Of a stretch of 20,000 nt of DNA, positions 1-19,256 are shown in pieces. This DNA comes from an uncultured virus (IMG/VR IMGVR_UViG_3300017991_000098) (taxonomy: Duplodnaviria; Heunggongvirae; Uroviricota; Caudoviricetes), in IMG/VR virus record IMGVR_UViG_3300017991_000098, one strand, 5' to 3'. Made by a program: the position numbers and the translations under genes. Numbering within the stretch: the stretch's first letter is position 1; the number at the start of each line of letters is the position of its first letter. The notes beneath the pieces were generated by a model. It did no database searches, was not told the origin of the DNA, and saw only the letters and a program-made list of their open reading frames with translations.

Positions 1-906
1 TTCCTTATAGACATTCAGCTGAGCACCCGTGGAGGTGGTCGTACCAATCAGAAGATTGCCGTCCTGTGTAATGCGCATGCGTTCTTCAACACCCGTACTT
101 CCGCCTTCATCCAGTGTCAAAAACACCAAACCAGCATCCGCATATGTATGGCTTGTACCAGTGCGTGTATGTACTGCACGGATTGAAGCATTTGGACCGG
201 GTGTATATGGATGTGCCGTACTTTGAGTATGGAAATCCAATGTGCTGTAAACGTCATTGTAGTCCCACGTGCTCGAAGTATCATTGTTGTTCAGCAACAA
301 TGTTGGATTTGCAGTTCTGATAATATTGACATCACCACCACCATCGATTCGGATTCTGCCGAGTCCATTTGTGCCCAAATACAATGGCGTGTTTTCATAG
401 GAATACAGATAGGCGTTTGAAGAATCGATTCCGACAATAATGCCATCACTTGAAGTGGTACCAGTCGTTGTGTTTGTGAATCTGGCAAAACTTCCTGCTG
501 TTGTATTTCTGTGTACATGCAGTTGGTTTGCGGGAGTGTTGATGCCCATGCCAACTTCGCCACCGCTCGTAATGCGCACCTTCTCGGCACCATTGGTTCC
601 AAACCTCAAAAAGTTACTGCCATGATTATATTGAATGAAACCTGCGTATAAAGTATCTCCTGATGTCCCATCAGCGAAATAGATATTACCATTGTTGGCG
701 GCATTTGAATAAATAGTTGCGCCAAAATCACCACTGCCATCACCAATAACTAGGTCGTTTGCATCAGAAGCCAGGTCGCCTGGGTTAGACGTAGCAACCC
801 CAATGGATGTGACGCCATTGATGGTTCCACCAGTTATTGCCGCACTAGCATTTCTGGTAATGCCAGATGGAAATTGATTTAGAGGGACATCTATAAGTTC
901 TACCAT
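1..906 (-). CDS. Tail fibre-like protein, N-terminal 302 aa (continues beyond the left edge; not in the ORF track)
   Basis: My translation from ATG at 906 is open to position 1: MVELIDVPLNQFPSG...NGNIYFADGTSG...YNHGSNFLRFGTNGAEKVRITSGGEVGMGINTP...LYLGTNGLGRIRIDGGGDV...EERMRITQDGNLLIGTT. It carries three copies of the 'ERMRI.S.GNVGIGT' type repeat typical of phage tail-fibre proteins that often end in a Peptidase_S74 chaperone. SD-like AGGTGGGA lies upstream. Confidence 0.8.
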   Translation of the reverse strand, partial: MVELIDVPLNQFPSGITRNASAAITGGTINGVTSIGVATSNPGDLASDANDLVIGDGSGDFGATIYSNAANNGNIYFADGTSGDTLYAGFIQYNHGSNFLRFGTNGAEKVRITSGGEVGMGINTPANQLHVHRNTTAGSFARFTNTTTGTTSSDGIIVGIDSSNAYLYSYENTPLYLGTNGLGRIRIDGGGDVNIIRTANPTLLLNNNDTSSTWDYNDVYSTLDFHTQSTAHPYTPGPNASIRAVHTRTGTSHTYADAGLVFLTLDEGGSTGVEERMRITQDGNLLIGTTTSTGAQLNVYKE

Positions 907-929
907 TTTGTTTTCCCACCTATATATTT

Positions 930-948
930 GCACCATACAAACTGGTGC
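930..948. other. Short inverted repeat (GCACCA-N7-TGGTGC) just after the stop of the giant Ser-rich gene
   Basis: 6-bp perfect stem with 7-nt loop; no U-tract on the minus strand, so terminator function is doubtful. Confidence 0.3.
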
Positions 949-952
949 TTAA

Positions 953-3900
953 TCAACTTAAACTTGAGCTCGATGAACCAGATGAACTGCTAGAAGGACA
1001 ATCACATATTTTGAGTGGGTCACCTTCTACTGTAACCTGCTCACTTTCAACAGTAATTTGATCACAACATGTTGATGAGCTAGAACTCAAACTGTTCGAA
1101 CTTGATGACAAGCTGCTACAAGATGAACTGGATGAACTACTCCTACTAGACGAGGAGCTGCTATTAGAACTACTGGAACTCTCAGAACAACTGCTGGAAC
1201 TATTGGAACAGCTAGAACTACTTAGGCTACTGCAAGAAGAACTTGAGGAACTTGATCTACTCGAAGAACTAGAAGATCTACTACAACTAGAAGAGCTGCT
1301 TGATCTAGAACAGCTACTTGACGATAAGCTTGAGCAAGACGAACTTGATGAACTGGATTGGCTAGAACTGCTAGAACTTTGTGAACAGCTTGAAGAGCTA
1401 GAACTGCTGGAACTAGATCTTGAACAAGAAGAACTGCTCAGGCTACTACAGGATGAACTTGATGAACTGGATTGGCTAGAACTAGACGAACTCCTGGAAC
1501 AACTAGATGAACTTATCGAACAAGAAGAACTACTCAGGCTACTACAGGATGAACTTGAAGAAGAACTGCGCGAAGAACTACTCAAACTGTTTGACGAAGA
1601 ACTAGATGACGAACTCCTCGAACAGCTACTTGAAGACAAGCTTGAACAAGATGAACTACTGGAACTTGATTGGCTGCAAGATGAACTGCTCTGCGAGCAG
1701 CTGGATGAGCTATGGCTGCTGCTAGAAGACGAATGACTAGAGCTGCTTGAAGAACTTGATTGGCTTGATGAAGACGAGCTCTGAGAACAACTGCTTGAAC
1801 TTGAACTACTAGAGCTTGATTGGCTACAACTGCTGGATGACAGGCTTGAGCAGGAAGAACTAGAAGAACTAGATTGACTAGATGAGGAACTGCTTTGGCT
1901 GCAACTTGATGAACTGCTTGAACTACTAGAACTCCGAGAGCTACTTGAGGAACTCAAGCTACTGCATGATGAACTTGAAGAGCTACTCTGACTCGAGGAT
2001 GATGAACTTTGGGAACAGCTGCTTGAACTTGAACTACTGGATGAACTATGCGAGCAAGAAGAGCTGCTGAGTGAACTGCAAGATGAACTCGAAGACGAAG
2101 ATCTACTTGAACTACTAGAACTCTGAGAGCTACTTGAACTACTAGAACTCTGAGAACAACTAGAAGAGCTGAGTGAGCTACAGGACGAACTAGAACTACT
2201 TGACCCACTTGATGATGATGAGCTTTGGCTGCAGGATGAAGAGCTAGAACTGCTGGAACTTGACCTGGAACAACTGCTTGAAGACAAGCTTGAGCAAGAT
2301 GAACTTGATGAGCTAGATTGACTACTTGATGAAGAACTCTGCGAGCAACTCGAAGAACTTGATGATGAACTACTAGATCTTGAACAACTCGAGCTACTAA
2401 GTGAACTGCAGGATGAACTTGAGGATGAGGATTTACTTGAACTACTACTGCGACTACTAGAGCTCCTAGAGCTACTCGAAGAACTTAGTGAGCAACTGGA
2501 GCTACTAAGGCTACTACAAGACGAAGAACTACTCGAACTATTGCTCGAAGATGAAGAACTTTGGGAGCAGCTTGAGGAGCTAGAGGAGCTTGATGAGCTT
2601 CTGGAACAACTTGAACTACTCAAACTACTACATGAGCTACTGGACGAACTTGATTGGCTCGAAGAAGACGAGCTCTTAGAACAGCTTGAAGAGCTGGAAC
2701 TACTAGACCTTGAACAACTTGAACTACTCAAACTACTGCAGCTAGATGAGCTTGAACTGGACCGGCTTGATGATGAACTACTCTGACTGCAGCTAGACGA
2801 GCTTGAGCTACTTGAAGAACTTCTGGAGCAAGATGAACTACTAATCGAGCTACAAGATGAGCTCGAAGAACTGCTCTGGCTCGAAGATGATGAACTATAT
2901 GAACTACTTGAAGAGCTATGGCTGCAACTACTAGATGAAAGACTAGAGCACGACGAGCTTGATGAACTCGAGCGACTACAAGATGAGCTGCTTTGACTAC
3001 AGGACGACGAACTAGATGAAGAGCTACTAGACATCGAGCAACTGCTTGATGACAAGCTTGAACAGGACGAGCTACTGGAACTTGATTGACTTGAAGAAGA
3101 CGAACTCTTGCTGCAAGACGAAGAGCTTGAACTGCTTGACGAACTCCTGGAACAACTGCTGGAACTCAAGCTGCTACAAGACGAGCTTGAAGAACTACTC
3201 TGACTGGATGAGGAACTACTTTTAGAACTTGATGAACTGCTTTGGCTCCCACTGCTGGAAGATAGGCTTGAACAAGACGAACTGCTGGAGCTAGACCTAG
3301 AACAACTTGAAGAGCTTTGTGAACAGCTACTAGAGCTAGAACTGCTGGAACTACTGCGACTGCAACTAGAGGAGCTAAGCGAACTACAAGATGAACTACT
3401 GGAACTTGATTGACTCGAGGAAGATGAGCTTTGGCTGCAGCTGGACGAACTGGACGAACTAGAACTACTGTGACTACAGCTACTTGAAGACAAGCTTGAG
3501 CAAGATGAACTGCTAGAACTTGACTGACTGCTCGATGAACTGCTCTTGCTGCAAGACGAAGAGCTACTAGAACTAGACCTCGAACAAGATGAGCTACTAA
3601 TTGAACTGCAAGACGAGCTTGAGGAACTTGATTGACTTGAAGACGAGCTACTCTTGGAACAACTTGATGAGCTAGAACTACTTGAGGAACTCTGGCTGCA
3701 ACTGCTTGAAGACAAGCTTGAGCAAGATGAACTACTGGAACTTGACTGGCTACTCGATGAACTGCTTTTAGAACTTGATGAACTACTTTGACTTCCACTG
3801 CTTGAAGACAAGCTTGAACAAGACGAACTCGAAGAGCTTGATTGGCTACTCGATGAACTGCTCTGCGAGCAACTAGAAGAACTTGATGATGAACTACTAG

Positions 3901-5977
3901 ATCTTGAACAACTTGAACTGCTCAGGCTACTGCAGGATGAACTTGAAGAACTGGATTGGCTGCAACTTGACGAACTCTGGGAGCAGCTAGAAGAACTAGA
4001 ACTGGATGAACTAGATTGTGAACAAGACGAGCTAGAGCTGCTTAAACTACTGCAAGAGGAGCTAGATGAACTTGATTGGCTCGAACTACTCCTTGAACAG
4101 CTACTACTTGAAGAGCTTTGTGAGCAGCTTGAGGAGCTAAGCGAACTACAAGAACTGCTTGATGAACTTGATTGGCTAGAAGAAGACGAGCTCTGTGAAC
4201 AGCTTGAGGAACTAGAACTACTTGATGAACTTCTGGAGCAACTGCTTGATGACAAGCTTGAACAGGACGAGCTACTGGAACTTGATTGACTTGAAGAAGA
4301 CGAACTCTTGCTGCAAGACGAAGAGCTTGAACTGCTTGACGAACTCCTGGAACAAGAAGAACTACTAAGACTACTACAAGACGAACTTGATGAGCTAGAG
4401 CGGCTGCTGCTTGAACTAGATCTGCTACAACTACTTGAGCTGCTAGATCGGCTGCAAGACGATGAACTCAAACTACTACATGAACTACTAGACGAACTTG
4501 ATTGGCTCGAAGAAGACGAGCTCTTACTGCAACTCGAAGAGCTTGAACTGCTAGAACTAGACCTAGAACAACTGCTTGAAGACAGGCTTGAACAAGATGA
4601 ACTTGATGAGCTACTCTGACTGCAGGACGAAGAACTCCGCGAGCAACTACTACTAGAACTGCTATGCGAGCAGCTAGAGGAACTGAGTGAACTGCAGGAT
4701 GAGCTACTAGAACTTGATTGGCTGCAAGATGAACTGCTCTGGGAACAACTAGAAGAACTTGATGATGAACTCTGTGAACAACTGCTAGAAGATAAGCTAC
4801 TGCATGATGAGCTTGATGAGCTCGAACGACTAGAAGACGAAGAACTCTGTGAACAGCTAGACGAACTTGAACTACTTGAACAACTTCTTGAACAAGATGA
4901 GCTTGAGCTACTGAGTGAACTACAGGAACTGCTGCTTGAGCTAGAGCGGCTGCTGCTTGAACTAGATCTGCTGCAACTACTTGAGCTGCTGGATCGGCTA
5001 CACGAAGAACTACTAAGGCTACTACAAGATGAACTTGAACTACTTGATTTGCTTGATGAAGAAGAACTTTGTGAACAGCTTGAAGAGCTTGAGCTGCTGG
5101 ATGAACTCCTAGAACAAGAAGAACTACTCAGACTACTGCAGGATGAACTTGATGAACTCGAACGGCTACAAGACGAACTAGAATTACTGGAACTAGAAGA
5201 GCTGCTTGACAGGCTACAAGACGAGCTGCTCAGGCTGCTACAAGAAGAACTGCTTGAACTTGATTTGCTTGAAGACGAGGAACTACGTGAGCTACTGGAA
5301 CTGGATATTGAGCAGCTAGAACTACTTAGGCTGCTGCAAGACGAAGAGGAACTGCTTGAACGACTACTGCTACTAGAACTCTGACTACAGCTACTTGAGC
5401 TGCTAGAGCTTGATGAACTTCTGGAACAGCTACTTGATGACAAACTGGAACAAGACGAACTTGATGAGCTACTCTGACTGCAGGACGAAGAGCTTTTAGA
5501 ACAACTAGATGAACTGCTGGAACTACTATTAGAACTACTAGAGCAGCTAAGAGAACTACATGATGACGAACTACTAGAACTTCTTGAACTCGATGATGAA
5601 CTTGTTGACAATGAACTACTACTGGCGCTGGACGAAGATGATCCAGATGTTGTCAGGTAATATTCCCTGATTATCCCACGTTCCTCAAAAAATCTTATTG
5701 TGCCGCCGCCAACATTGCCAACACATTGTGGTGTGTCCCAATTATCTTGAGTAAAGTCTATGGTGTAGGTGGAAAGAGACATTCCAGAACTTGGCTCAAG
5801 TTGTACAACCAAATCAACATATGGCTGTCCAGAAAGATGGAAGCAGAAGCCGGAACCAGTCTGGCCGGTGACCACAATATCAAGAATGGGATGTTGTATG
5901 ATCTTTTGGTGCCGACGGAATGGCTCGTACCATGTGGATCCAGGAGTTACAGGTATTCTGATGTAAAAGTCAGACAT
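953..5977 (-). CDS. Giant serine-rich Cys-repeat protein (~1674 aa), putative virion fibre/appendage
   Basis: Likely start is ATG 5977 rather than 6094: the minus strand reads GTGGAGT-TGA-G-ATG, i.e. a GGAG SD with the upstream gene's stop 1 nt away. ~110-aa non-repetitive N-terminus, ~1525-aa Ser/Cys repeat, short CC..CxC C-terminus. No signal peptide. Function inferred from context only. Confidence 0.8.
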   Translation of the reverse strand: MSDFYIRIPVTPGSTWYEPFRRHQKIIQHPILDIVVTGQTGSGFCFHLSGQPYVDLVVQLEPSSGMSLSTYTIDFTQDNWDTPQCVGNVGGGTIRFFEERGIIREYYLTTSGSSSSSASSSSLSTSSSSSSRSSSSSSSCSSLSCSSSSNSSSSSSSSCSKSSSSCSQSSSSSSSCSSLSSSSCSRSSSSSSSSSSCSQSSSSSSRSSSSSSSCSSLSSSSCSISSSSSSRSSSSSSKSSSSSSSCSSLSSSSCSLSSSSSSSSNSSSSCSRSSSSSSSCSSLSSSSCSRSSSSSSSSSSCSQSSSSSSKSSSSSSSCSSLSSSSCSRSSSSSSCSRSSSSSSRSSSSSSSCSSLSSSSSSCSRSCSSSSSSSSCSQSSSSSSRSSSSSSSCSSLSSSSCSQSSSSSSSSCSQSSSSCSQSSSSSSSCSSLSSSSCSHSSSSSSCSRSSSSCSQSSSSSSSCSSLSSSSCSRSSSSSSSSSSCSKSSSSSSQSSSSSSSCSSLSSSSCSRSSSSSSCSRSSSSSSRSSSSSSSCSSLSSSSCSRSSSSSSSSSSCSKSSSSSSQSSSSSSSCSSLSSSSCSRSSSSSSSSSSCSQSSSSSSQSSSSSSSCSSLSSSSCSQSSSSSSCSRSSSSQSSSSSSSCSSLSSSSSSCSQSSSSSSSSSSCSQSSSSCSQSSSSSSSCSSLSSSSCSRSSSSSSSSSSCSQSSSSSSQSSSSSSSCSSLSSSSGSQSSSSSSKSSSSSSQSSSSSSSCSSLSSSSCSQSSSSSSSSSSCSKSSSSSSQSSSSSSSCSSISSSSCSRSSSSSSSSCSKSSSSSSQSSSSSSSCSSLSSSSCSHSSSSSSSSSSCSQSSSSSSQSSSSSSSCSSLSSSSCSRSSSSSSSSSSCSQSSSSCSRSSSSSSSCSSLSSSSGSQSSSSSSKSSSSSSQSSSSSSSCSSLSSSSCSRSSSSSSSSSSCSKSSSSSSQSSSSSSSCSSLSSSSCSMSSSSSSSSSSCSQSSSSCSRSSSSSSSCSSLSSSSCSHSSSSSSYSSSSSSQSSSSSSSCSSISSSSCSRSSSSSSSSSSCSQSSSSSSRSSSSSSSCSSLSSSSCSRSSSSSSSSCSKSSSSSSQSSSSSSSCSSLSSSSCSRSSSSSSSSSSCSQSSSSSSNSSSSSSSCSSLSSSSCSLSSSSSSRSSSSRSSSSSKSSSSSSSCSSLSSSSCSRSSSSSSSSSSCSQSSSSSSQSSSSSSSCSSLSSSSCSRSSSSSSSSSSCSQSSSSSSGSSSSSSSCSSLSSSSCSQSSSSSSSSQSSSSSSRSSSSSSSCSSLSSSSCSHSSSSSSSSSSCSQSSSSSSQSSSSSSSCSSLSSSSSSRSSSSSSSSSSCSQSSSSSSQSSSSSSSCSSLSSSSCSQSSSSSSSSSSCSQSSSSSSQSSSSSSSSHSSSSSSHSSSSCSQSSSSCSQSSSSSSSCSSLSSSSCSRSSSSSSSSNSLSSSSRSSSSSSSCSSLSSSSCSISSSSCSRSSSSSSQSSSSSSSCSSLSSSSCSRSSSSSSSSSSCSQSSSSSSQSSSSSSSCSSLSSSSCSRSSSSSSCSRSSSSSSRSSSSSSSCSSLSSSSCSNSSSSCSESSSSSNSSSSSSRSSSSSSSCSSLSSSSNSLSSSSSTCCDQITVESEQVTVEGDPLKICDCPSSSSSGSSSSSLS
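1073..5647 (-). repeat. Coding tandem repeat, ~41 units anchored on S7-C-S-S-[L/I], mostly 32-40 aa per unit
   Basis: Hand count of CSSL/CSSI anchors in the translation. Canonical 38-aa unit: SSSSSSSCSSL-SSSSCSR-SSSSSSSSSSCSQ-SSSSSSQ. DNA is degenerate through mixed TCN/AGY codons. Confidence 0.95.
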
Positions 5978-5978
5978 C

Positions 5979-6905
5979 TCAACTCCACACGTCGATCCAC
6001 TCAAAGGTGCCAGCGCCAGTTGAGGTGTCTGGATCTGCCCAGGCTGAGTCTGGGTCGGTGGTTTCGGTGTCTGGGTCGACCCATCTCGGGCCACTAGTAA
6101 CTATCAGATCAACCTCGTCAGATACAGAACAATCCACATGATGGGCAAATGGGTCATCTGGCTTGTTATTTGGGCAGGTGTAGTTGGTCTGACGATATTC
6201 GACAAACTGTTCTCCACCCTCGGCCGCAATAACGTACCCATTATCTTCGGCGAAGATGATTTGTCTTGTAATAGTAGTGACGCCCTTGCGGTATATCTTT
6301 AGGCCATCCCTATACCCGCTCTGTTCCTCACCTGGTACTCGTGGGTCGAAAGTCTCGGTAATGATATCGATTCGATACCCATCAGTTACCCATTCTACGC
6401 GATAGATGCGGTTATAATCATCAACATAATCAAGAGCACCAGTTGGTGTTGGCGAAATAAGATTAGAAATAAACATGTCTGGTATCTCTCCATCTAGGAG
6501 AGTGCTACAAGTGCCAACCTTTTCTGGCAGAACCATGGTCCTATCGAATTCGACGCGATCACAGTTCCAGTCATAATTGCCGTCTTCACTACGGAAAAAA
6601 TCTAAAGAGCAAGAGTTGGCTTGCTCCGGTTCCGTTCCACATTCATATCTGAGGCAACCGCAGTCTAAACGGTACCCCTTCCACTGGTGATAATTTTTTG
6701 TTGTTTCATTGAGATATATGCCAGAACCTAACCTGGCAACGAGAGTGACATCACCGCCACTATCAGCCAGATCAGTCTGTGGAACACCCATAGCCGACAG
6801 CAGATTTTCGTGCCTTGTGTATGCGGAGAACTCGTCAACATTCATAACGAACTCACCGGTTTCGGCCGGGTATCCATCTATGTAATCTGTGTGCAGATTA
6901 GCCAT
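5979..6905 (-). CDS. Hypothetical acidic protein (308 aa), probably virion structural
   Basis: Long ORF; ATG overlaps the upstream TAA (ATGGCTAA) and its stop abuts the next ATG. No family recognised. Confidence 0.75.
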   Translation of the reverse strand: MANLHTDYIDGYPAETGEFVMNVDEFSAYTRHENLLSAMGVPQTDLADSGGDVTLVARLGSGIYLNETTKNYHQWKGYRLDCGCLRYECGTEPEQANSCSLDFFRSEDGNYDWNCDRVEFDRTMVLPEKVGTCSTLLDGEIPDMFISNLISPTPTGALDYVDDYNRIYRVEWVTDGYRIDIITETFDPRVPGEEQSGYRDGLKIYRKGVTTITRQIIFAEDNGYVIAAEGGEQFVEYRQTNYTCPNNKPDDPFAHHVDCSVSDEVDLIVTSGPRWVDPDTETTDPDSAWADPDTSTGAGTFEWIDVWS

Positions 6906-9687
6906 CTGTTCCTATCACACCGCAATCGCTTGCGGATTCAAAAATTGGTTCTGATACGTTAACTGCTTCTTCTTCAGCATACACAGTCATGTCGAGAGTT
7001 ATTCCTGGCCTCTCTTCTGCAGTGGTATAAATAGCATGTGTGATATCGTAAATGGTTGTTGGATCCCCAAGTGAGGTCTGATCTGGAACTAGGCCATTAC
7101 CTTGATACACCAAATCTGCATCATCCCATACAATATATTCCTCCCCATCTGTACCCTCTTCTATCCTAGCATTTAATGGGTTATATGGGGTGTCAATATC
7201 GCATCTGCATGGCTCAGTAAAGTCCCACGGCCTTGCTCGGTACTCGGGGTGTGTAAAATCAGTTAAGATCTTGAACATTGTTAAGAACCTATGACCTGGG
7301 AAGTGCATGGCATACTTCTCAATGTCCAAACTGGGGCGCAAAATGGCCGGCTGAGATATTGGTCCTGGGAAGAACGTGCGATTACTAAATTGCAGATTGG
7401 TGTCACCATAATTTCTCTGAAGCCTTCCAAGCCACCCCTTACCTTGATTCTTAGCGTTGGTGGTGTCAAGAGTGTAGTAAACACCCTGACCCATGCCAAG
7501 TGAACATGGCTTGCATCTTACCCTCTCATCCAGGAGCATTACTCTTTGTGGGTCTACCTCGTCCTGAACCCTGCCTTTATAGCAATAATCGACTCCAGCA
7601 TCTGTGTCTCGAACACGGCCTCTGGTGTCTGGTCCATCATCTGGGTCATAATCTGGATCAAATGCCCTTCGATCCTGGCCATAATTGTTATACCCATCAT
7701 TGTCATTGTCGGGATATGCTGTAGGTACGTCAGAGATATTGCTGAGATCTTGTCTGTCTGAGTCCGTGATTCTGTGAGAATCAATAGTATCCTGCCAAAC
7801 CTGAAATTCGCGCTCTAGCTCAGCCAAAATGGCTTGGCGCATTGCAATATCTTCTGGCTTGAAACCGCGAGTTACCGCAATATCATCACACTCATCACCT
7901 GGATCGGTTGGGATGATTGCTGGAGGTACCTGAAGATTGCCAGCATCATAATTTGGATCCTGAGTAATCTCTGATCCAGCACAAAAGTCTGAAACATTAT
8001 ATACCGTATCAAGTGTAATTGTATAAGTGATCTTTCTGAGAATTGAATGAAATGCCTTCATACCAAACAGAAGATTTATGAGGAAGTCATATAGATTGGA
8101 GTCTATGACTTCACCGGTTTTCATTTCAACATTTACATCAAAGCGGTTGGACTGCCTGCGCTCAAGCTTGTCTGGCAACACAATCTGGTCGCGTTGATAT
8201 GAAATAAAGAAATATGCGGAATAGTCATCAAATCCCTGATGACCATTAAATATCAAATTGGCTGTGTTTGTGACTCTATCAAACGACACACCGTTGGCAT
8301 TGAGTGGGGCACTGCCGGTTGAATACTCTACCCTGACTGATCCATTAACAAGGAATATGTGACTGTACCCAACAGATCCGTCTTTACCTTGCACAGCCTC
8401 AAGAAGCTTTCTCGGGATAATTGAACCTTGAGCATCGCGCACACAAGTCTCATCAGTAAGGTAATCAGGGTTCTTGTTGACTTCATCCATCATGTCATCG
8501 AGGGCATCTTGTAGATCTGAACCATCCTCAACAAACCACGCATCGATGGTTACACCATTACCGTCACCCGTGTTTCGGTACAAAAGCGGCACATCAAGAT
8601 TGCCGAACCCGGATTCTGCGTAACCAACAAGGGCCGGATCTACTTGGCAAACATCGTAGACCTCAATTTCTTGGCTTTCGTCTACAAGCTGCTCGCCGGG
8701 GGCTATGAAGTACTTTCCATTCACCTCTGACCACAGATTGATTAGATCTACTGTGAACCCAGCAATCTCAAACAGCTCTATAATGGCCCTATGGGTACCC
8801 TTAAGCTTCTGTAGATAAGCACCACGACGCACAACCGCACGCCTAATATTGTCATTGGCCTGTTGAAAGAATGGAAGGTCAATGCCTATCAGATAAGCCA
8901 GGTATGGTATCAACTGCGGTGGTATATCATGAACCCAGTTAATGCCGCGAAGTAATTCTTGTTCGTCAAAAATGTCTTGCAGCGCATCGGCAAATGGGCG
9001 ATATAAGTTGATGATTGGGTCGCTCTGCCTGTTTTCTGATGTAAAGTAAACAGGCGGCGTCTTATTGACCATCTCAAGGTGAATTTCACCGGGGTGCGAT
9101 ATCAACTCCTGGTATCTAGCATAACCAATATCATCAGAGATGCACAATAACTCACCGTCTGAAGATGAAACACGCTTACAGTAAGTAGCTTGCCAAACAA
9201 AATTGTATCGTCTTTCTGGGAGACCGGTGACGTCTATCTCAAACATCGATAGATCATGATACTCAGCATCGGGATAATATATGATCCTATCAGTGATACC
9301 ACGACCAATAACGAACTCAAAGTAATCACCCTCTTTTGCTTCGGATTGATCAATCTGCTCGCCACCAGCTGTATAAAAAGTGGCAGATGTTAGATCAATT
9401 CTGGCATCTCTGAGTTGCTGTTCAGTGACGTCAATCTTGTATAGGGTCAAGTCTGGATTGAAAATGCCAACATGATCATGGCCCGCAACTTTGGCACGCA
9501 TAGTGTCTTCAATGCCAAATGTTAGACTCTTGATTTCCGAATTTTCGCGGTATCGCCCCGGATCACTAAACTTGCGCCAAGGATTTACAAGAACCACAGG
9601 AAGCCAGACCGGTTGCCAACCAGTCCTATTGTTCTGCTGCGGATATATGTAAAAAGATGGTTGGAACCTATCAGGCACTTGGGACAT
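6898..9687 (-). CDS. Baseplate wedge / phage tail protein with P2 gpI-like (Tail_P2_I) domain, 929 aa
   Basis: Segment 'DIPPQLIPYLAYLIGIDLP...IRRAVVRRGAYLQKLKGTHRAIIELFEIAG' fits the gpI-type pattern LP(W/Y)LA...R..I......+.KGT..AI. Later 'MKAFHS' resembles the KPAH motif of such wedge proteins. Confidence 0.7.
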   Translation of the reverse strand: MSQVPDRFQPSFYIYPQQNNRTGWQPVWLPVVLVNPWRKFSDPGRYRENSEIKSLTFGIEDTMRAKVAGHDHVGIFNPDLTLYKIDVTEQQLRDARIDLTSATFYTAGGEQIDQSEAKEGDYFEFVIGRGITDRIIYYPDAEYHDLSMFEIDVTGLPERRYNFVWQATYCKRVSSSDGELLCISDDIGYARYQELISHPGEIHLEMVNKTPPVYFTSENRQSDPIINLYRPFADALQDIFDEQELLRGINWVHDIPPQLIPYLAYLIGIDLPFFQQANDNIRRAVVRRGAYLQKLKGTHRAIIELFEIAGFTVDLINLWSEVNGKYFIAPGEQLVDESQEIEVYDVCQVDPALVGYAESGFGNLDVPLLYRNTGDGNGVTIDAWFVEDGSDLQDALDDMMDEVNKNPDYLTDETCVRDAQGSIIPRKLLEAVQGKDGSVGYSHIFLVNGSVRVEYSTGSAPLNANGVSFDRVTNTANLIFNGHQGFDDYSAYFFISYQRDQIVLPDKLERRQSNRFDVNVEMKTGEVIDSNLYDFLINLLFGMKAFHSILRKITYTITLDTVYNVSDFCAGSEITQDPNYDAGNLQVPPAIIPTDPGDECDDIAVTRGFKPEDIAMRQAILAELEREFQVWQDTIDSHRITDSDRQDLSNISDVPTAYPDNDNDGYNNYGQDRRAFDPDYDPDDGPDTRGRVRDTDAGVDYCYKGRVQDEVDPQRVMLLDERVRCKPCSLGMGQGVYYTLDTTNAKNQGKGWLGRLQRNYGDTNLQFSNRTFFPGPISQPAILRPSLDIEKYAMHFPGHRFLTMFKILTDFTHPEYRARPWDFTEPCRCDIDTPYNPLNARIEEGTDGEEYIVWDDADLVYQGNGLVPDQTSLGDPTTIYDITHAIYTTAEERPGITLDMTVYAEEEAVNVSEPIFESASDCGVIGTDG

Positions 9688-9734
9688 TTAGTGCACCATA
9701 AAAGAAACAATTCGAAATATACACGGTATTTTTG

Positions 9735-10022
9735 TTAGGGGGCGGGAGAAGCGAAGCCGTTATCTTCGAGGTACTTGATAATACTTTCAACGTCTTCTAA
9801 TATCTCTCCATTATATACCTTCAAAACCGGAGTGAATTTGCCCTCCAGCCCAAAAGAAGCCAAGACAGCTCGTGTGGCATCGTTTGAGAAGGTATATATT
9901 ATGTGTATCTGGTGCCCGTTTGTGCCTACGAACTCATCCTCAAACATGACCTCAGGGTTGAGAACGGCTTTCAGCTTCACACAGTCCGCACAATTGTACA
10001 TAAAGAATAGATAATCTTGCAT
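9735..10022 (-). CDS. Thioredoxin/glutaredoxin-fold protein (CxxC), 95 aa
   Basis: Hydrophobic strand then CADC (YLFFMYNCADCVKLK), and a C-terminal 'FGLEGKFTPVLKVYNGE' matching the cis-Pro loop plus beta-hairpin of the Trx fold. Confidence 0.7.
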   Translation of the reverse strand: MQDYLFFMYNCADCVKLKAVLNPEVMFEDEFVGTNGHQIHIIYTFSNDATRAVLASFGLEGKFTPVLKVYNGEILEDVESIIKYLEDNGFASPAP

Positions 10023-10034
10023 AATGGTAAAATA

Positions 10035-10724
10035 CTATGGATTGCACGGGCCAGATGGAGAAGCACAACCATTTGGACAATAGGTGGCTCCAGTATACAT
10101 GACGGACAACGCAATGCCACTAGGAATACAAGCTGGAACAAACGCAGGACTGCAAACTGGGGGGCTGGGTGTGTAGCTGGATAAGTAAGTACAATAATCG
10201 CCAGCCGGATTGCACACGTTCTGGCAGCTGGCATCTGAATAGTAAGTTCTGTGTATCACATAATAACCAGCCCCGGTATACTGGGAGCTAGATGAAGATG
10301 ATGATGAAGATGACGAAGATGATGAACTTGAGCTGCTTGAGGAACTAGAACTGCTTGAGGAACTAGAGCTGGATGAACTGGATGAACTGGATGAACTGGA
10401 TGAACTGCTGGATGAGCTACTGGAAGAGCTAGAGCTTGATGATGGAGGACAATTACTGGAGCATTCAGAAGCGGTATAAGGCCCTGTCCATTCTGTCTTA
10501 AACCATATTCCGCCCAAATCTGCACACGAATTAGACGGAGGTGTAGCTTGATACACACAAGAATAGAAAGATGGTGGGTCACAGTTTGTACACATTGAAT
10601 CATAGCAATAAGACTGAGCAGCACACCAAGTGGCTCCTGTGCCGCTGCTTGAGGAGCTACTGGACGATGAGCTAGATGAGCTAGATGAACTACTGGCAGA
10701 TGAACTCAACCGCTCGCCTGCCAA
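10035..10724 (-). CDS. Poly-Ser / Cys-rich cassette (229 codons), probably a frameshifted continuation or silent C-terminal module of the upstream gene
   Basis: TTG start with no visible SD; Ser run begins after 6 codons. Layout is polySer - Cys domain - S53 - Cys domain. Overlaps the upstream gene by 19 nt in the -1 frame. Confidence 0.6.
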   Translation of the reverse strand: MAGERLSSSASSSSSSSSSSSSSSSSSGTGATWCAAQSYCYDSMCTNCDPPSFYSCVYQATPPSNSCADLGGIWFKTEWTGPYTASECSSNCPPSSSSSSSSSSSSSSSSSSSSSSSSSSSSSSSSSSSSSSSSSSSSSSSSSSSSSQYTGAGYYVIHRTYYSDASCQNVCNPAGDYCTYLSSYTPSPPVCSPAFVPACIPSGIALSVMYTGATYCPNGCASPSGPCNP

Positions 10725-12787
10725 AAACTATAGGTCAAAGTTGCATCAGTACGACCACCGTATGTTCCACCACCGGGATAAGAGTACCAAGAAGAACCAG
10801 TGTAATTGCCTGCTGGTGTAACCCCATAGTTTTTAAGACCTAGAACATTGAGGTAGGGGTACCAACTAAAGGCTCCTTCCCATCGACAAGTATTCAGTCT
10901 CACAAATCCAGGCTGTGACGGTGGCGATATGCTTGTCCAACTGTCTGCGCTGTCGACCGTAGTGGGACCACCAACTTGTGTACCATTGTAAAGTAATGAT
11001 CGACGCTCTAACTCCAAGTTCCAATTGCATTCTGTGGGTGATGTACGAGATGCGGGACCGCTTGGTCTAAATTCCCATATGAGCCACTTTTCCGAGGGGA
11101 AGGGGAGCCATTCTCGCCATTCTGTAACAATAGGTTCTGCATCATACCTACTTTCAATGTTACCCGTCACCTGATACTCGTATGCCAGATCGCTCGGGCA
11201 ATCACACGGAGCGGCTTGTAAAGAAGACGAACTGGACGAACTGGATGAAGATGAACTAGATGAAGATGACTTAGAGCTTGACGATGAACTGGACGAAGAT
11301 GAACTACTTGAGCTACTGCTCGAGGAACTAGATGAACTAGATGAGCTGGATGAGCTGGATGAGCTACTGCTTGAGGAACTAGATGAACTGGATGAGCTGG
11401 ATGAGCTACTGCTTGAGGAACTAGATGAACTAGATGAGCTAGATGAGCTAGATGAGCTAGATGAGCTACTGCTGGATGAGCTACTGGATGAGTCACCAAT
11501 GCTAGACGATGACGATGAGCTACTGGATATAACGACTGGCATTGGTGCTGGTACTGGCGGTTGCAGATTATTTACGTCAACAGAGCAAGCGTCACCAGCG
11601 TTTGGACACAGGAAGAATGGCTCTTGACAACACTGTTCCGCAGGCTTCGATTCAACTAACGGATTATAGATCTCTTCTGGAACATCATTTTCGTACCACT
11701 CCAGGTCTTCATTGTGTTCTCTTCTCCAGTTGAAATCATATGAATCATATTGTCTTGGGCTTGGACAATTTTCGGTTGGCTCCCACTGTGGCATTTGTGT
11801 AGAGTCTGCCGTTTCTGACGGGTCTCTGGGAGAAAATTTGTAATAATATATGTCTTTGCAATCTGCAGTGCTAACTCTTGACGCCAAAATAACAGTATCG
11901 TCGATATCAAAACCAAACACCGATGACTTCAAACTATCGACACAAGCAGATTGGCTTGGCCTCGACACCGAGGTCCTGATATTATCACCATCTTTACGTA
12001 TGCTAAAGATTGCTGTTGTGCTTCGTAAATCTGGGTGAACTACCATCACCTCTTCAAGTTTTAATAATAATTCGCCATCGGTGCCAACATCGCCAATCGG
12101 GCCTCTCTGCCTGACCCTATATGTCCAATCACCGCCCAAGTCACCTTCTAACTGTACAGACCCAGACAGAACATTGTCTTTCAAATTCAAATCAATAGAA
12201 ACAATAACATAATCGGAAATAGCTGTTATGTCGAAACCATCAAGTGGTACCATAAACTCAGCGATTTGTGTGTCATCTTTTGATAGACGCAACGATACAT
12301 CTGTTTCAATTGGTGTGTTAACTGTGGTCGGACCAATTACGAATATGCCATCTAACGTTGGACTCACAACATGAATTGGTTCCGGGTCTGCTGGTTCACC
12401 TGCGTCGCCTTGTGGGCCATCATCGCCAATGCTACCACCATCGCCAACACAAGTGTGACGCCAAAACTTTCGAATAAGGGCTTGTCTATCAAGTTCTACT
12501 CTGAGCTGCTTCTGTTCTGTATTCTCAACTTGAAACTTAATAAGTTTATCAGTAGAGTGAAAGTAGTAAAAATATGATCTAAATTGGCTGAGCTTCAGTC
12601 CACGATACTCATCAGTACTCATGGCGACCAAGAGATCGTGGAGAGATGGTGAAACCAAACCATCCTCTTCTTCGGTAACATCATCATAGATATCTAGATA
12701 CCCCTTAGATATCCATACATTGGATTCTGCATCATACTCGTGGATTATGCCGTTTGTGTCTATAATTTGTTGTTTATCACTTGGCAT
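10706..12787 (-). CDS. Fibre-like protein, paralog B (693 aa): conserved N-terminal ~420 aa with collagen-like Gxx triplets, S73-K-S16 stalk, Trp/Gly-rich C-terminal domain
   Basis: GDGGSIGDDGPQGDAGEP and RQRGPIGDVGTDG triplets; N-terminal region co-linear with 12836..15136. Confidence 0.75.
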   Translation of the reverse strand: MPSDKQQIIDTNGIIHEYDAESNVWISKGYLDIYDDVTEEEDGLVSPSLHDLLVAMSTDEYRGLKLSQFRSYFYYFHSTDKLIKFQVENTEQKQLRVELDRQALIRKFWRHTCVGDGGSIGDDGPQGDAGEPADPEPIHVVSPTLDGIFVIGPTTVNTPIETDVSLRLSKDDTQIAEFMVPLDGFDITAISDYVIVSIDLNLKDNVLSGSVQLEGDLGGDWTYRVRQRGPIGDVGTDGELLLKLEEVMVVHPDLRSTTAIFSIRKDGDNIRTSVSRPSQSACVDSLKSSVFGFDIDDTVILASRVSTADCKDIYYYKFSPRDPSETADSTQMPQWEPTENCPSPRQYDSYDFNWRREHNEDLEWYENDVPEEIYNPLVESKPAEQCCQEPFFLCPNAGDACSVDVNNLQPPVPAPMPVVISSSSSSSSSIGDSSSSSSSSSSSSSSSSSSSSSSSSSSSSSSSSSSSSSSSSSSSSSSSSSSSSSSSSSSSSSSSSSSSSSSSSSKSSSSSSSSSSSSSSSSLQAAPCDCPSDLAYEYQVTGNIESRYDAEPIVTEWREWLPFPSEKWLIWEFRPSGPASRTSPTECNWNLELERRSLLYNGTQVGGPTTVDSADSWTSISPPSQPGFVRLNTCRWEGAFSWYPYLNVLGLKNYGVTPAGNYTGSSWYSYPGGGTYGGRTDATLTYSFWQASG

Positions 12788-12835
12788 GTATATTCCAATA
12801 CGTTGAATTAAGTTGATGAACTTGATTTATATTAT

Positions 12836-15136
12836 CTATGTAACTATTACTGTGGGTGGACATGGCCCACCTGCACAATAATCAAGGGAATAAGTACCAC
12901 TTGGACAGCTACCACCTGCTTTTTCGAAGTATCCAAAATAAGAAGAGCTACCCACAGCGGCAGAATAAGGACCGCTAACATCGTTGGCCGAAATAGCTGA
13001 ACCATTAGATGCGACCCATACACAATATCCATCATAGCTCATCAACCCAACACCGTCTGGCCATGTTGGTTCTGAACATTCCGCACATGCATCGGTTGAA
13101 CTAGATGAACTAGATGAACTAGATGAGCTAGATGAACTAGATGAACTAGATGAACTAGGCCGATCACAACAGCATCCACAATGATATTGTCCTCCATCAT
13201 ACCAACAGTAACTAGGACCATATGTACTACACGGTACCCAATCATGTGGCGATAACCATGCGCATTCAATAGAGCAATCAGTGAGCCATCCATCAAAGCA
13301 ATCTTCACAAGAAACGCCACTTATTGCCACTTCTATTCCTGAACCACATCCAGAAGTATCACATGGATACGATGATGGTATGCCTGATGAACTGCTAGAT
13401 GAAGAGCTGGACGAAGACGAACTACTGGATGAACTGGATGAACTACTGGATGAACTACTGGATGAACTACTGGATGAACTACTGGATGAACTACTGGATG
13501 AACTACTGGATGAACTACTGGATGAAGACGAACTAGATGAAGATGAAGACGAACTAGATGAAGATGAAGACGAACTACTGGACGAAGACGAACTAGATGA
13601 CGAGCTAGATGAACTACTGGATGAACTACTGGATGAAGACGAACTAGATGAACTAGATGAAGATGAAGATGAACTAGATGAAGATGAGGAGCTAGAGCTT
13701 GATGAAGATGAGGAGCTGGACGAAGATGAACTAGACGACGAGCTAGATGACGAGCTAGATGAAGACGAACTAGATGAACTACTGGACGAAGACGAGCTAG
13801 ATGAAGATGAGCTACTGGACGAACTGGATGATGAGATGCCAGAGCTAGAGCTTGATGAAGAACTTATAGAAATAACTGGCATTGGCACTGGCACTGGCGG
13901 TTGTAGGTTATTTACGTCAATTGAACACGCATCACCAGCGTTTGGACACAGGAAGAATGGCTCTTGGCAACACTGCTCATCAGGACGACCTTCAATAAGC
14001 GGGTCATAGATATCTGCTGGAACATCGTTTTCGTACCACTCCAGGTCTTCGTTGTGTTCTCTGACCCACTTCAAGTTATAAGAATCATACTGCCTATAAC
14101 TTGGGCAATTTTCGGTTGGTTCCCACTGTGGCATTTTAATGGTGTCTTCAGCATCATCAATTGACACTTGATAGTAATATATGTCTTTGCAATCTCTGGT
14201 GGTAACTTGCGGAGATAACAAATATGATTCTGATATATCAAATGGCAGAGATTCAGATTTTAGGCGACTGACACAGGCTGTTTGGTGCAGCCTAGTGTTC
14301 ATCTGTACTATATCTGGTCCAGATTCTCTAATGTTGAATATGGCAGTTACGCTGCGAAGATCAGGATCTTCTGTGATAAGTTCCTGTAGGTGTAGGAACA
14401 ATTCTCCGTCATCACCAGGATAACCTTGTGGGCCTCGCTGTCGTACTTTATAAATCCACATCCCATCCAAATCACCAGATAGGACAACCGTACCCCAGAC
14501 ATAACCATCCTCAAACTTGATGTCTTGAGATATGATTTCATAATCAGATATTGCAGCAATATCTGACCCGTCTATTGGCACTAAGAACTCTACAGCCAGA
14601 ATATCACCTTTGAACATCCTGAGTGATATATCTGTTTCAATTGGTGTACTAACTGGGGTTTTTGGTATAATAAATTCGTCTGTATCACCAAGAACAGGAT
14701 AGACACCTTCATCTTCGGCTGGTTTACCGGTATCACCCTGCTGCCCAACATCTCCGATAGCGCCTTTTGTACCAATGCAAGGTTGCCTCCAAAACTTCCT
14801 GATTAGGGCCTGCCGATCAAGTTCTACCCTTAGGCGCTTTCCATCATTTGCGTTCTCTACACGAAATTTAATGAGAGAATCTGAAGAGTGAAAGTAGTAA
14901 AAGTATGCATTGTTGCCGAGCTTTAACCCATTAAAATCTCTGGCTTCAACAGATTCCAACAGGCCATGCAGGGACGGAGGAACTAACCCTTCCTGGTCCT
15001 CCGTGACGTCTCCGTAAACATCCAAGTACCCTTTGGATATCCAGGTATCCGTCTCAAAATCGTACTCATGTAGAATGCCGTTGGCATCTAGTACAACGGT
15101 GCCATCAGATGGGTCTATGATGGGTAGTCTCGACAT
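12836..15136 (-). CDS. Fibre-like protein, paralog A (766 aa): conserved N-terminal region, 150-Ser stalk, two Cys-rich modules separated by a second Ser run
   Basis: GTKGAIGDVGQQGDTGKP and RQRGPQGYPGDDG triplets. Shares LRVELDRQALIRKFWR and EQCCQEPFFLCPNAGDACS with paralog B. Uninterrupted Ser codons at 13385..13834. Confidence 0.75.
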   Translation of the reverse strand: MSRLPIIDPSDGTVVLDANGILHEYDFETDTWISKGYLDVYGDVTEDQEGLVPPSLHGLLESVEARDFNGLKLGNNAYFYYFHSSDSLIKFRVENANDGKRLRVELDRQALIRKFWRQPCIGTKGAIGDVGQQGDTGKPAEDEGVYPVLGDTDEFIIPKTPVSTPIETDISLRMFKGDILAVEFLVPIDGSDIAAISDYEIISQDIKFEDGYVWGTVVLSGDLDGMWIYKVRQRGPQGYPGDDGELFLHLQELITEDPDLRSVTAIFNIRESGPDIVQMNTRLHQTACVSRLKSESLPFDISESYLLSPQVTTRDCKDIYYYQVSIDDAEDTIKMPQWEPTENCPSYRQYDSYNLKWVREHNEDLEWYENDVPADIYDPLIEGRPDEQCCQEPFFLCPNAGDACSIDVNNLQPPVPVPMPVISISSSSSSSSGISSSSSSSSSSSSSSSSSSSSSSSSSSSSSSSSSSSSSSSSSSSSSSSSSSSSSSSSSSSSSSSSSSSSSSSSSSSSSSSSSSSSSSSSSSSSSSSSSSSSSSSSSSSSSSSSSSSSSSSSSSSSSSSSSSSSSSSSSSSSSSSSSSSSSSGIPSSYPCDTSGCGSGIEVAISGVSCEDCFDGWLTDCSIECAWLSPHDWVPCSTYGPSYCWYDGGQYHCGCCCDRPSSSSSSSSSSSSSSSSSSSSTDACAECSEPTWPDGVGLMSYDGYCVWVASNGSAISANDVSGPYSAAVGSSSYFGYFEKAGGSCPSGTYSLDYCAGGPCPPTVIVT
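13437..13520 (+). repeat. Perfect 12-bp tandem repeat (GATGAACTACTG)x7 within the poly-Ser stalk
   Basis: Read directly from the sequence; each unit adds 4 Ser on the minus strand. Confidence 0.9.
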
Positions 15137-15211: not shown

Positions 15212-15523
15212 ATGCAGATATTAATATTATGGAGTGATGACCCGATATTCTATGAAGCCGTATGGGGTGATGATTTGGCGGTGGGACAGGTAATTATGAG
15301 GGTTCAGGGAACCACAGTGAATCCGATAGATTCTATAGAGCTACTGCAGAGGCGGTTTGAGATGATCCAGGTGGATGTGGCTGGATTAGATCCGGCATTC
15401 GCCAGATGGGGTGATAAGAGCTATTTCTGTGGGTACTCCACAGTTGAGGATGATGAAGGCTTACATATTTTACACGAGCGCCTCAATCTGCTGATTCCGG
15501 CTCTTGCGGACGAGCATCGATAA
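15212..15523 (+). CDS. Hypothetical protein (~103 aa)
   Basis: Strong SD GGAGGAG at 15201-15207 before ATG 15212 (preferred to TTG 15176). Divergent from the fibre cluster; 3' end overlaps a convergent gene. Confidence 0.6.
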   Translation: MQILILWSDDPIFYEAVWGDDLAVGQVIMRVQGTTVNPIDSIELLQRRFEMIQVDVAGLDPAFARWGDKSYFCGYSTVEDDEGLHILHERLNLLIPALADEHR

Positions 15524-15902
15524 ACTTGTCATCGCCCTCCGGTTTTCCTTTTATATCTATCGCATCAACAGACTTTATGCTTGGTACAGCAACCGCTATG
15601 TTGGACAATTGTTGCATCCTATCCTCGGCAAACTGATAAGTTTCTGGCCTTTTAGGAATCACCTCTAAAGTGACCCTAAACACAGTGAACTTTGTATTGG
15701 ATTCGGCAGGTCCAGCATCAACCGCAACCACATTTATGGTCGATATCTCTTCTTTGGTGATCCCATTATCAACCAACTTCTCGGGTATCACCTGATGTTC
15801 TTCAACTACAGCAACTTGAACATTGGCTGAATTAATCGCCATTATGCCAAAAACTATGCCAGCCGTCAGCGCCAATAAACAAGCCATAATTGTATTATTC
15901 AT
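15483..15902 (-). CDS. Hypothetical protein with N-terminal TM/signal segment (139 aa)
   Basis: Hydrophobic N-terminus (IMACLLALTAGIVFGIMAI); TAATG coupling with the upstream gene. Confidence 0.7.
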   Translation of the reverse strand: MNNTIMACLLALTAGIVFGIMAINSANVQVAVVEEHQVIPEKLVDNGITKEEISTINVVAVDAGPAESNTKFTVFRVTLEVIPKRPETYQFAEDRMQQLSNIAVAVPSIKSVDAIDIKGKPEGDDKFIDARPQEPESAD

Positions 15903-16399
15903 TAGAAACTCCAGGTAATTGTTATTCCAAAGGCAACTTCTCTCTCAGCGAGACGATCACGTGGCCACACATCACCCCAATCGCGGTTCTTGGCTGCTTC
16001 CAATTCTCCATTAATAGTCCCCAGGTGAAAGCGCCATATATTGCCGTCCCCAGTGAATCCGTACCATGTGGCCCCAGTTAAACACCAAGGATTCCATGGT
16101 TCATCGTTAGCCACGCAATGGAGCCACTTCTCTGGGCCACAATCAACATGTTCTACCGTCCAACTAACAATCTCACCTACATTGTTTCGTTCACCGAATG
16201 GGTTGGTCGGAGCCGGATCCTGTTTTGGAGTGGCTTTCAAACTGTCAACATCAACCACCAGATTCAAACTGTCCGGATCTAGAATGGACACGGATGCCCC
16301 TGCTGGCATTGGCTGAGCTGCGCTAGACATACCAGCATAAGCCAAAGACAAAGCAAGAGCCACCACACAACCCACAATTCCTAAAAGCAACTTAGACAT
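15902..16399 (-). CDS. Hypothetical exported protein with signal peptide (~165 aa)
   Basis: MSKLLLGIVGCVVALALSLAYA signal-like N-terminus; GGAG SD before ATG 16399, which overlaps the upstream stop (ATGTCTAA). Confidence 0.7.
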   Translation of the reverse strand: MSKLLLGIVGCVVALALSLAYAGMSSAAQPMPAGASVSILDPDSLNLVVDVDSLKATPKQDPAPTNPFGERNNVGEIVSWTVEHVDCGPEKWLHCVANDEPWNPWCLTGATWYGFTGDGNIWRFHLGTINGELEAAKNRDWGDVWPRDRLAEREVAFGITITWSF

Positions 16400-18594: not shown

Positions 18595-18626
18595 GTTACT
18601 ACATATCCTAGAGGTAAATATACCCG

Positions 18627-18944: not shown

Positions 18945-19256
18945 AATTGACTTTTTGTCGTGCCAATACCAAAATCTTAGCTTACAGTTCCTACACATCA
19001 GCACCATCTGAATCTGGTCACCTTTTCTTTCACCAACACCTTGTGGCCTTGAAAATTCACCACATTCTGGACATTTAATGTCGTCATGGTAGGTTGGTGG
19101 GGTCATAGTCTTAAGGCAGGCTAAAACACTTTCCCTATATACAGAATGGGCGTCCTTTCGGACGCCCATGTCTGAGATTTCATCAGTTATTACTACTCGG
19201 ACTTTTTCTTGTCCTTTTTCTTGCCCTTGCCGTCTGTGCCCATCTCTTTTGGACAT
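18921..19256 (-). CDS. Small Zn-ribbon protein (111 aa)
   Basis: CPECG and CRNC pairs; GGAGG SD before ATG 19256. Confidence 0.65.
   Translation of the reverse strand: MSKRDGHRRQGQEKGQEKVRVVITDEISDMGVRKDAHSVYRESVLACLKTMTPPTYHDDIKCPECGEFSRPQGVGERKGDQIQMVLMCRNCKLRFWYWHDKKSILTAFKDD

Follow-up and report, generated by a model that had tools for sequence, protein, structure and literature searches.

We analysed a 20,000-nucleotide stretch of DNA (the window) from an uncultured virus of the class Caudoviricetes (IMG/VR record IMGVR_UViG_3300017991_000098), focusing on a minus-strand gene at 953-5977 whose product is composed mainly of serine and regularly spaced cysteine; we refer to them as the Ser/Cys gene and the Ser/Cys protein. 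The repeat units of this protein vary in length by even steps only, and this parity looks selected at the protein level. The gene has the following features:

953..5977, minus strand: complete open reading frame (ORF) of 1,674 amino acids (aa) plus a TGA stop, the only stop-free frame of the six across the repeat
5983..5986, minus strand: GGAG ribosome-binding site seen in the sequence itself, 5 nt ahead of the ATG (5977-5975)
5642..5977, minus strand: non-repetitive N-terminal domain (aa 1-112), one copy of a beta-sandwich repeat
1073..5641, minus strand: Ser/Cys repeat array (aa 113-1635), 1,523 residues with 41 anchors and 40 complete units
995..1072, minus strand: C-terminal motif TCC...CDCP (aa 1636-1661), 26 residues with four Cys
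956..994, minus strand: terminal S5-G-S5-L-S tail (aa 1662-1674)

In the ORF list of the window, a single minus-strand ORF at 953..6094 covers the array. The ATG at 5977 is the likely start, and reading from it to the TGA stop (953-955) gives 1,674 codons, in agreement with the length of about 1,674 aa proposed by a first-pass annotation made from the sequence alone. The TGA stop of the preceding gene occupies 5981-5979 and the ATG follows 1 nt later; this stop-start spacing, together with the ribosome-binding site, indicates translational coupling to the preceding baseplate gene. Serine accounts for 1,248 of the 1,674 residues (74.6%) and cysteine for 126, while the repeat part alone (aa 113-1635) holds 1,227 Ser in 1,523 residues (80.6%) and 120 Cys (7.9%), so that the roughly 80% serine of the first-pass annotation describes the repeat part and not the whole protein. 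The four Cys of the C-terminal motif flank two short segments, QITVES and QVTVEG, whose sequence has a strand-like character.

Independent contig pieces from one public sediment run support the sequence: all eight listed pieces match with 0 differences, at 366-783 nt each, with six lying inside the ORF and none of those listed spanning the whole gene. Within the array, 122 of 4,496 31-mers recur and the longest exact repeat is 120 nt. With the exact matches of the listed pieces and so few recurring 31-mers, we consider an assembly artefact unlikely. Among the 87 contigs of the sediment run that matched window positions 900-7000, 59 overlap only partly, and several of them continue into unrelated non-repeat sequence. 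The sediment sample may hold other genes with similar Ser-coding stretches, and cross-matching among units of the Ser/Cys gene may also contribute to these partial overlaps. No RNA-derived data carrying the 953-5977 stretch were found among the matches listed.

Repeat grammar and the even-length rule

A script finds 41 exact S7-C-S-S-[L/I] anchors in the array, 39 with Leu and 2 with Ile, which is the number of near-invariant anchors that the first-pass annotation had estimated. The typical unit reads S7CSSL-S4CS[R/Q]-S(6-10)CS[Q/K/R]-S6[Q/R/K]. Anchor-to-anchor distances are 38 residues in 19 units, 34 in seven, 32 in six, 36 in five, 40 in two and 68 in one; the even unit lengths first noticed by hand counting therefore hold, by script, for 40 of 40. 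The anchor Leu or Ile occupies an odd protein position in 41 of 41 cases, and the same positions spread evenly modulo 3, 5 or 7, so a period-2 phase is maintained across 1,500 residues. Cutting the array after each residue other than Ser or Cys yields 176 blocks, of which 168 are odd in length (5, 7, 9, 11 or 13), as had also been described. The other 8 blocks are even, as expected from substitution within a Ser run, and leave unit length unaffected. Cysteine spacing follows similar regularities. In 34 of 40 units the anchor loop, C-SSLSSSS-C, has 7 residues between its Cys, and two further units have 9. Between the second and third Cys of a unit lie 6, 8, 10 or 12 residues in 37 of 41 cases. 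In 23 cases, 16 residues separate the last Cys of a unit from the anchor Cys that follows.

Two explanations of the parity that require no selection were examined and rejected. The first is DNA slippage. Adjacent identical codons (154) are about 15 times commoner than identical dicodons (10), and the autocorrelation of Ser codon class peaks at lag 3 (same-class fraction 0.61) and lag 6 (0.66); with one-codon substrates and a three-codon class periodicity, slippage should yield odd steps. The second is inheritance from a few ancestral units. The nearest neighbour of a unit at the DNA level differs from it in length for 23 of 40 units, and unit length is nearly uncorrelated with the similarity of the flanking DNA. 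On trees of the gap-free flanks built by the unweighted pair group method with arithmetic mean (UPGMA), which are crude (the key spans 75 nt, sites are saturated and gene conversion may have occurred), at least 17-18 changes in unit length are needed, compared with about 19.5 for shuffled labels. Because at least 17 independent length changes are required, a handful of inherited events cannot account for 40 even units out of 40, and we set this explanation aside on what is admittedly crude evidence. The neighbouring genes provide an internal control: their six plain Ser runs measure 17, 53, 73, 16, 150 and 20 residues, three odd and three even. The parity thus looks selected rather than mutational, with the constraint acting on the protein. 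The first-pass annotation had taken the parity to suggest a beta-solenoid or cross-beta fibre; the slippage analysis, the at least 17 changes and the neighbour control strengthen the case for a protein-level constraint, with the fold itself still a candidate only.

Comparison of the units at the two levels points in the same direction. The 1,523 repeat codons contain 0 stops in the Ser frame and 17-256 in the other five frames. Among the 19 units of 38 aa, mean identity is 94.1% for protein but 61.1% for DNA, and a Nei-Gojobori-type count gives a proportion of synonymous differences (pS) of 0.855, while the amino acid differs at 5.9% of positions. Pairs of aligned Ser codons match in 32% of cases, where 20% would be expected at random, and 30% of the pairs switch between the AGY and TCN families, which no single synonymous step can interconvert. 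Tandem Repeats Finder did not detect the 114-nt period of the array. Selection acts on the protein, because Ser codons switch freely between AGY and TCN while the protein stays 94% identical. Either the repeat is old or its DNA is being actively scrambled, and selection on the protein maintains it.

A nearly open frame on the opposite strand raises the question of whether the coding product might lie there instead. A plus-strand frame (1070-5640) rich in Leu, Glu and Asp (L 630, E 439, D 202, Q 113) has 20 stops in about 1,520 codons, all of them TGA, and would be open if TGA encoded Trp. However, a near-open antisense frame arises automatically here, because AGY reads CTN and TCN reads GAN on the other strand. 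Read in that frame, the AGY/TCN switches would replace Leu by Asp or Glu, a radical change, whereas the minus strand keeps Ser, and single-step intermediates other than Cys are absent. Moreover, of the 12 minus-strand genes examined, 5 terminate in TGA, among them the Ser/Cys gene, and the neighbouring genes all lie on the minus strand. Since TGA is used as a stop and it is Ser rather than Leu or Glu that is conserved, we rejected an antisense gene with TGA recoding, which we hold to be extremely unlikely. The antisense Leu/Glu/Asp/Gln frame could nonetheless mislead gene callers that use code 4.

Codon usage within the Ser runs of this phage has a pattern of its own. The runs use all six codons in short periodic class patterns, such as AGY-TCN-TCN repeated (a 9-nt period) or AGY-AGY-TCN-TCN. 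Periodic Ser-codon tracts lie at the following positions:

953-5641
10284-10442
11273-11491
13097-13156
13385-13834

Adjacent identical codons are rarer than in shuffled sequences (154 versus 188 +/- 12). This usage points to selection that disfavours DNA prone to slippage or favours balanced use of tRNAs, and the array illustrates how a phage may keep a 4.6-kb repeat genetically stable by scrambling six Ser codons.

The tail module and relatives of its proteins

The genes around the Ser/Cys gene form a tail module:

1..936, minus strand: tail-fibre gene with tail-fibre PHROGs matches, cut by the window end, its listed start 16 nt past the Ser/Cys stop
5979-6905, minus strand: second baseplate gene, 308 aa, directly upstream and stop-start coupled to the Ser/Cys gene
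6898-9687, minus strand: upstream baseplate gene, 929 aa, with a Tail_P2_I domain (P2-gpI-type)
9735..10022, minus strand: glutaredoxin/thioredoxin-like protein, 95 aa, with a C-A-D-C motif, within the tail module
10035-10724, minus strand: polyserine-spacer gene, 229 aa, with Ser runs of 17 and 53
10706-12787, minus strand: polyserine-spacer gene, 693 aa, with Ser runs of 73 and 16
12836-15136, minus strand: polyserine-spacer gene, 766 aa, with Ser runs of 150 and 20

The Tail_P2_I and tail-fibre PHROGs matches bear out the position between baseplate and tail-fibre genes that had been assigned to the Ser/Cys gene at the outset. In the three polyserine-spacer genes upstream, modules that are folded or rich in Cys are set apart by plain spacers of 16-150 Ser residues. 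Two of the proteins, those of 693 and 766 aa, are paralogues whose N-domains are 60% identical over 409 aa, and the non-Ser domains of all three genes match nothing in Pfam, PHROGs or NCBIfam. The 693-aa protein shares the pentapeptide CDCPS with the Ser/Cys protein, at a level that is not significant (E 0.045), and beyond it the ends of the Ser/Cys protein have no similarity to the neighbouring proteins. Because the same operon carries plain polyserine spacers, the Ser/Cys protein looks like an elaborated version of a local habit of building polyserine stalks.

The 95-aa protein matches Pfam GST_N_3 and GST_N_2 below the cut-offs (E 0.0077 and 0.036). In the ESM Atlas it falls with glutaredoxin clusters at 0.90-0.92 by features, with structural template-modelling (TM) scores of 0.55-0.66 to glutaredoxin and thioredoxin models, and it has no sequence match in the PDB. 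A redox-like protein adjoining Cys-rich proteins in a tail module occupies an unusual place.

The phage is probably a large, uncultured, myovirus-like one. Searches of 50,697 phage records with blastn and tblastn returned no relatives. One relative of the baseplate gene was found in IMG/VR, on a complete phage of 370,804 bp (L001) whose baseplate protein is 38% identical; there, at 10001-14137, the homologues of the genes at 6898-9687 and 5979-6905 are fused into one baseplate protein of 1,378 aa. L001 has no Ser-rich gene downstream of the fused gene and no Ser/Cys array. No relative of the N-domain of the 693-aa protein was found.

The lack of a homologue in L001, which has the same baseplate gene, speaks for the possibility that the protein is made but does not form a virion filament, serving instead as an intracellular scaffold, a length ruler or a matrix former, or being a recently expanded and dispensable low-complexity gene. 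We regard this as quite unlikely. Saturated synonymous divergence with a conserved protein argues against recent or neutral expansion, and the gene sits between a gpI-type baseplate gene and a tail fibre, translationally coupled to a baseplate gene; P2-like phages place their fibre genes after the gpI-type baseplate gene. Its sequence and setting identify the Ser/Cys gene as a true structural gene within the tail/baseplate module, under strong purifying selection at the amino-acid level.

Whereas the array has no detectable relatives, the N-terminal domain has many. The homologue search that the first-pass annotation had called for, run with phmmer against 1.84 billion representatives, returned 937 proteins at E<=1e-3 that share the beta-sandwich repeat, 15 of them at E<=1e-30 and the best at 1e-72. 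The matched proteins reach about 7,900 residues and hold 5-40 matched stretches each, so the domain is a single copy of a repeat from which giant proteins are built. Aligned with 16 such copies, it shows a core motif, L-x-F-T-x-x-N-W-x-T-P-Q, with L48, P52, F75 and W80 invariant. Using the same 16-copy alignment, AlphaFold2 produced an all-beta model with a mean predicted local distance difference test (pLDDT) of 64, rising to 84-91 in the core at residues 40-95, and the fold matches of this model are generic beta-sandwiches (Foldseek best E 0.08; VIA-align best Z 4.2). The N-terminus is an adhesin-type beta-sandwich module. Neither the domain nor four of the matched proteins gave a consistent Pfam or NCBIfam family. 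A search for short homologues of the domain (69-221 aa) was negative, and so was one for sequence relatives in the PDB. With translation started at the GTG at 6094, the first 159 aa gave no tblastn match in the 50,697 phage records. Across the whole Ser/Cys protein, Pfam returned 0 families (PHROGs was not run on this protein).

Array searches have limited reach for sequence of such low complexity. A protein-level locus search with 200 aa of the repeat gave 593 pattern matches, none confirmed, with low-complexity masking as the probable cause. Searches with residues 100-600 and 1620-1674 (8,000 candidates each, proteins of 920-2,930 aa) and a language-model search of the ESM Atlas found no array homologue. 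At the DNA level, three codon-class patterns had 0 matches each in viral contigs and two had 0 each in genome contigs; these patterns prescribe the codon class at some Ser positions and would overlook relatives that use other codons there. The single metagenome match of one pattern, on the contig L002, was a false positive that lies opposite a collagen-like Gly-X-Y stretch. On that 23-kb contig, the Gly-X-Y stretch lies close to the C-terminal end of a roughly 2,295-aa protein encoded at 7647-14534 on the minus strand. In the literature on polyserine and bacteriophage and on serine-rich jumbo-phage proteins, we found no such phage structural protein described.

A candidate Cys-stapled serine filament

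The reading we favour, which we hold to be plausible if short of probable, is a virion filament of Cys-stapled serine hairpins. The protein would project from the baseplate as a very long hydrophilic filament, and its array would be an elaborated form of the plain polyserine spacers used by the three neighbouring tail-module proteins. Rather than forming a random coil, the chain would fold back in paired beta-hairpin or ribbon-like segments, which the cysteines would staple by disulfides or possibly metal. A hairpin model would explain the two-residue quantum because one extra rung on an arm costs exactly two residues, and the even counts between the second and third Cys (6, 8, 10 and 12) would fit such rung-by-rung lengthening of the arm. 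The glutaredoxin-like CxxC neighbour would manage thiols in the cell, and the four-Cys end motif of 26 residues would cap the filament or link it to another component. The function would likely be reach or adhesion to a host surface or to particles, and this is the least certain step. A chain of 1,523 residues would be about 0.5 micrometre long when fully extended and about half that as a two-stranded ribbon, while as a random coil it would have a radius of gyration of about 15 nm. Chemically made poly(L-serine) of 5-22 residues adopts beta-sheet or strand structure (PMC9954318).

Several observations weigh against this filament. The source is a sediment metagenome, and if the sediment is reducing, extracellular disulfides may not form. 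Most units (24 of 40) have three Cys, so not every Cys can pair within its unit. The array is followed by no sizeable distal binding domain, only by the 26-residue motif at the end. Unit order relies on the assembly of the window itself, since independent contigs confirm pieces and an exact internal repeat of 120 nt is present. No search found an array homologue that could show conservation of the grammar across lineages. Finally, AlphaFold2 on four units (148 residues) gave a mean pLDDT of 37, a predicted TM score (pTM) of 0.10 and no secondary structure, so that the monomer prediction of three to four units proposed in the first-pass annotation yielded no confident fold and no strands, an outcome that a disordered chain would also produce. 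The input was a pseudo-alignment of 15 other four-unit stretches, which are paralogous; because no true homologues inform the prediction, it neither supports nor excludes order.

The narrower proposition, that the array is an ordered polyserine beta-ribbon or meander of Cys-stapled hairpins whose length changes by one rung (two residues) only, is in our view unlikely. If it were true, the phage baseplate would carry a stiff, fully hydrophilic filament about 0.1-0.5 micrometre long. No natural "serine silk" would precede it, and for the first time hidden order in a low-complexity region would have been recognised from strict length parity.

The strongest competing reading is a disordered tether or brush of highly hydrated polyserine, maybe O-glycosylated or phosphorylated, in which the Cys would give occasional cross-links and the grammar would serve recognition by modifying enzymes, encoded elsewhere in the genome, rather than a fold. 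We consider it somewhat unlikely. The four-unit prediction, with its low pLDDT and absence of secondary structure, speaks for it, as does the use of plain polyserine spacers between modules in three neighbouring genes. There is also precedent in Saccharophagus degradans: of its carbohydrate depolymerases, more than a quarter have their domains set apart by polyserine linkers (PMC2386152). However, a random coil does not predict a two-residue length quantum and needs no even unit lengths through at least 17 independent changes, and the Cys, Leu and basic or amide positions are fixed at 94% identity despite saturated synonymous divergence. A spacer requires neither punctuation nor parity, as the plain ones encoded in this genome demonstrate. 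Among the scanned ORFs of the 20-kb window there is no glycosyltransferase or kinase family, and nothing beyond 26 residues lies distal to the would-be tether.

The near-exclusive composition of Ser and regularly spaced Cys is also what a substrate of enzymatic Ser-Cys cross-linking would have, whether through lanthionine-type thioethers, in which Cys adds to dehydrated Ser, or through radical-SAM thioethers, with the grammar and the two-residue register set by the enzyme. We judge this improbable, as the scanned ORFs of the window gave no radical-SAM, LanB/LanC/LanM-like or other maturase match and, to our knowledge, no precursor of the lanthionine or thioether type reaches 1,500 residues.

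Among known systems, the Ser/Cys protein works most like a polyserine linker or stalk, but departs from it in its scale, its punctuation and parity, and in having no distal domain. Polyserine linkers typically join two folded modules by some tens of residues, almost all of them Ser. In contrast, the Ser/Cys array runs to 1,523 residues with Cys, Leu and basic or amide punctuation and even units only, and the protein has an N-terminal module but ends in a 26-residue motif instead of a domain. The likeness lies in the long hydrophilic Ser spacers of extracellular modular proteins, as found in S. degradans (PMC2386152), Cellvibrio japonicus and Teredinibacter turnerae. The three neighbouring tail-module genes match that pattern directly, with runs of 16-150.

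The serine-rich repeat protein (SRRP) adhesins of Gram-positive bacteria (GspB, Fap1, SraP, PsrP) are long Ser-rich surface stalks with an (S-X)n dipeptide periodicity of two residues. They carry a signal peptide, an LPxTG anchor, alternating Ser-X and no regular Cys, and have dedicated SecA2/Gtf genes. The Ser/Cys protein resembles them in its very long Ser-rich repeats and two-residue periodicity, but has pure Ser runs, regular Cys and no signal peptide or LPxTG, as the first-pass annotation had also held: the protein contains 0 matches to the expression LP.TG, and its N-terminus, MSDFYIRIPVTPGSTWYEPFRR, lacks a hydrophobic core, the highest 19-residue Kyte-Doolittle mean anywhere in the protein being 0.98 (no dedicated signal-peptide predictor was run). 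No Pfam family of glycosyltransferase or SecA2/Y2 genes is present in the 13 neighbouring ORFs or sub-domains scanned. The Ser/Cys protein is not a Gram-positive serine-rich repeat adhesin.

Disulfide-laddered antifreeze beta-solenoids of the Tenebrio molitor type consist of 12-residue T-C-T-x-S-x-x-C coils, span about 80-120 residues and have a confident beta structure. They share with the array short repeats rich in Ser, Thr and Cys and a regular Cys ladder that staples turns, as the first-pass annotation had envisaged for the array; whereas their coils are constant at about 12 residues, the units of the array measure 32-40 residues, include a variable arm and have no confident predicted fold. 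Designed lamellar crystals of [(Ala-Gly)x-Glu-Gly]n and the 38-residue Ser-rich repeat of sericin are beta-forming periodic polypeptides. In these periodic beta-sheet polypeptides and silks, too, strands of small residues are bounded by bulkier residues at the folds and stems change by two residues, but they are bulk materials or synthetic polymers without Cys. The sandcastle worm cement proteins Pc3A/B combine an extreme Ser content with punctuation by Tyr, not Cys or Leu. These polyphosphoserine proteins likewise have Ser runs punctuated by single residues and serve as a marine-sediment adhesive, but they are secreted by an animal and act by phosphorylation and coacervation (PMC11277488); no kinase was found among the scanned window ORFs. 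Against this background, the polyserine spacer theme is already known, and the Cys grammar and the even-length rule set the array apart.

Low-complexity regions are usually dismissed as disordered linkers, whereas here purifying selection at the level of single residues and a two-residue quantum extend over 1,500 residues. If the array is ordered, it would represent a new fibre architecture made almost wholly of serine. Such an architecture would be relevant to phage structural biology, as a way for large phages in sediment to reach hosts or particles or adhere to them, and to protein materials, as a water-loving beta-sheet polymer with programmable cross-links. Comparing length parity with the available slippage substrates also provides a simple sequence test for hidden order in low-complexity proteins.

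Other features of the window

Farther upstream, the window holds four more minus-strand features:

15483-16411, minus strand: a pair of neighbouring small ORFs, of 139 and 169 aa, both with an N-terminal hydrophobic segment
16392-17354, minus strand: gene with helix-turn-helix and LAGLIDADG-type homing-endonuclease-like parts, directly downstream of the ATPase gene and overlapping its end
17308-18654, minus strand: clamp-loader/MgsA-type ATPase gene, farther upstream of the Ser/Cys gene
19193-19774, minus strand: extremely acidic protein of 193 aa with long Glu/Asp runs and a Lys-rich C-terminus, without a family match

The genome of L001 contains a (TCGTCA)n tract of about 115 nt (G001:C1:153675-153790). 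In the pair of small ORFs at 15483-16411, the 169-aa member also has an I-V-G-C lipobox-like motif, and by its sequence the pair may be spanin-like.

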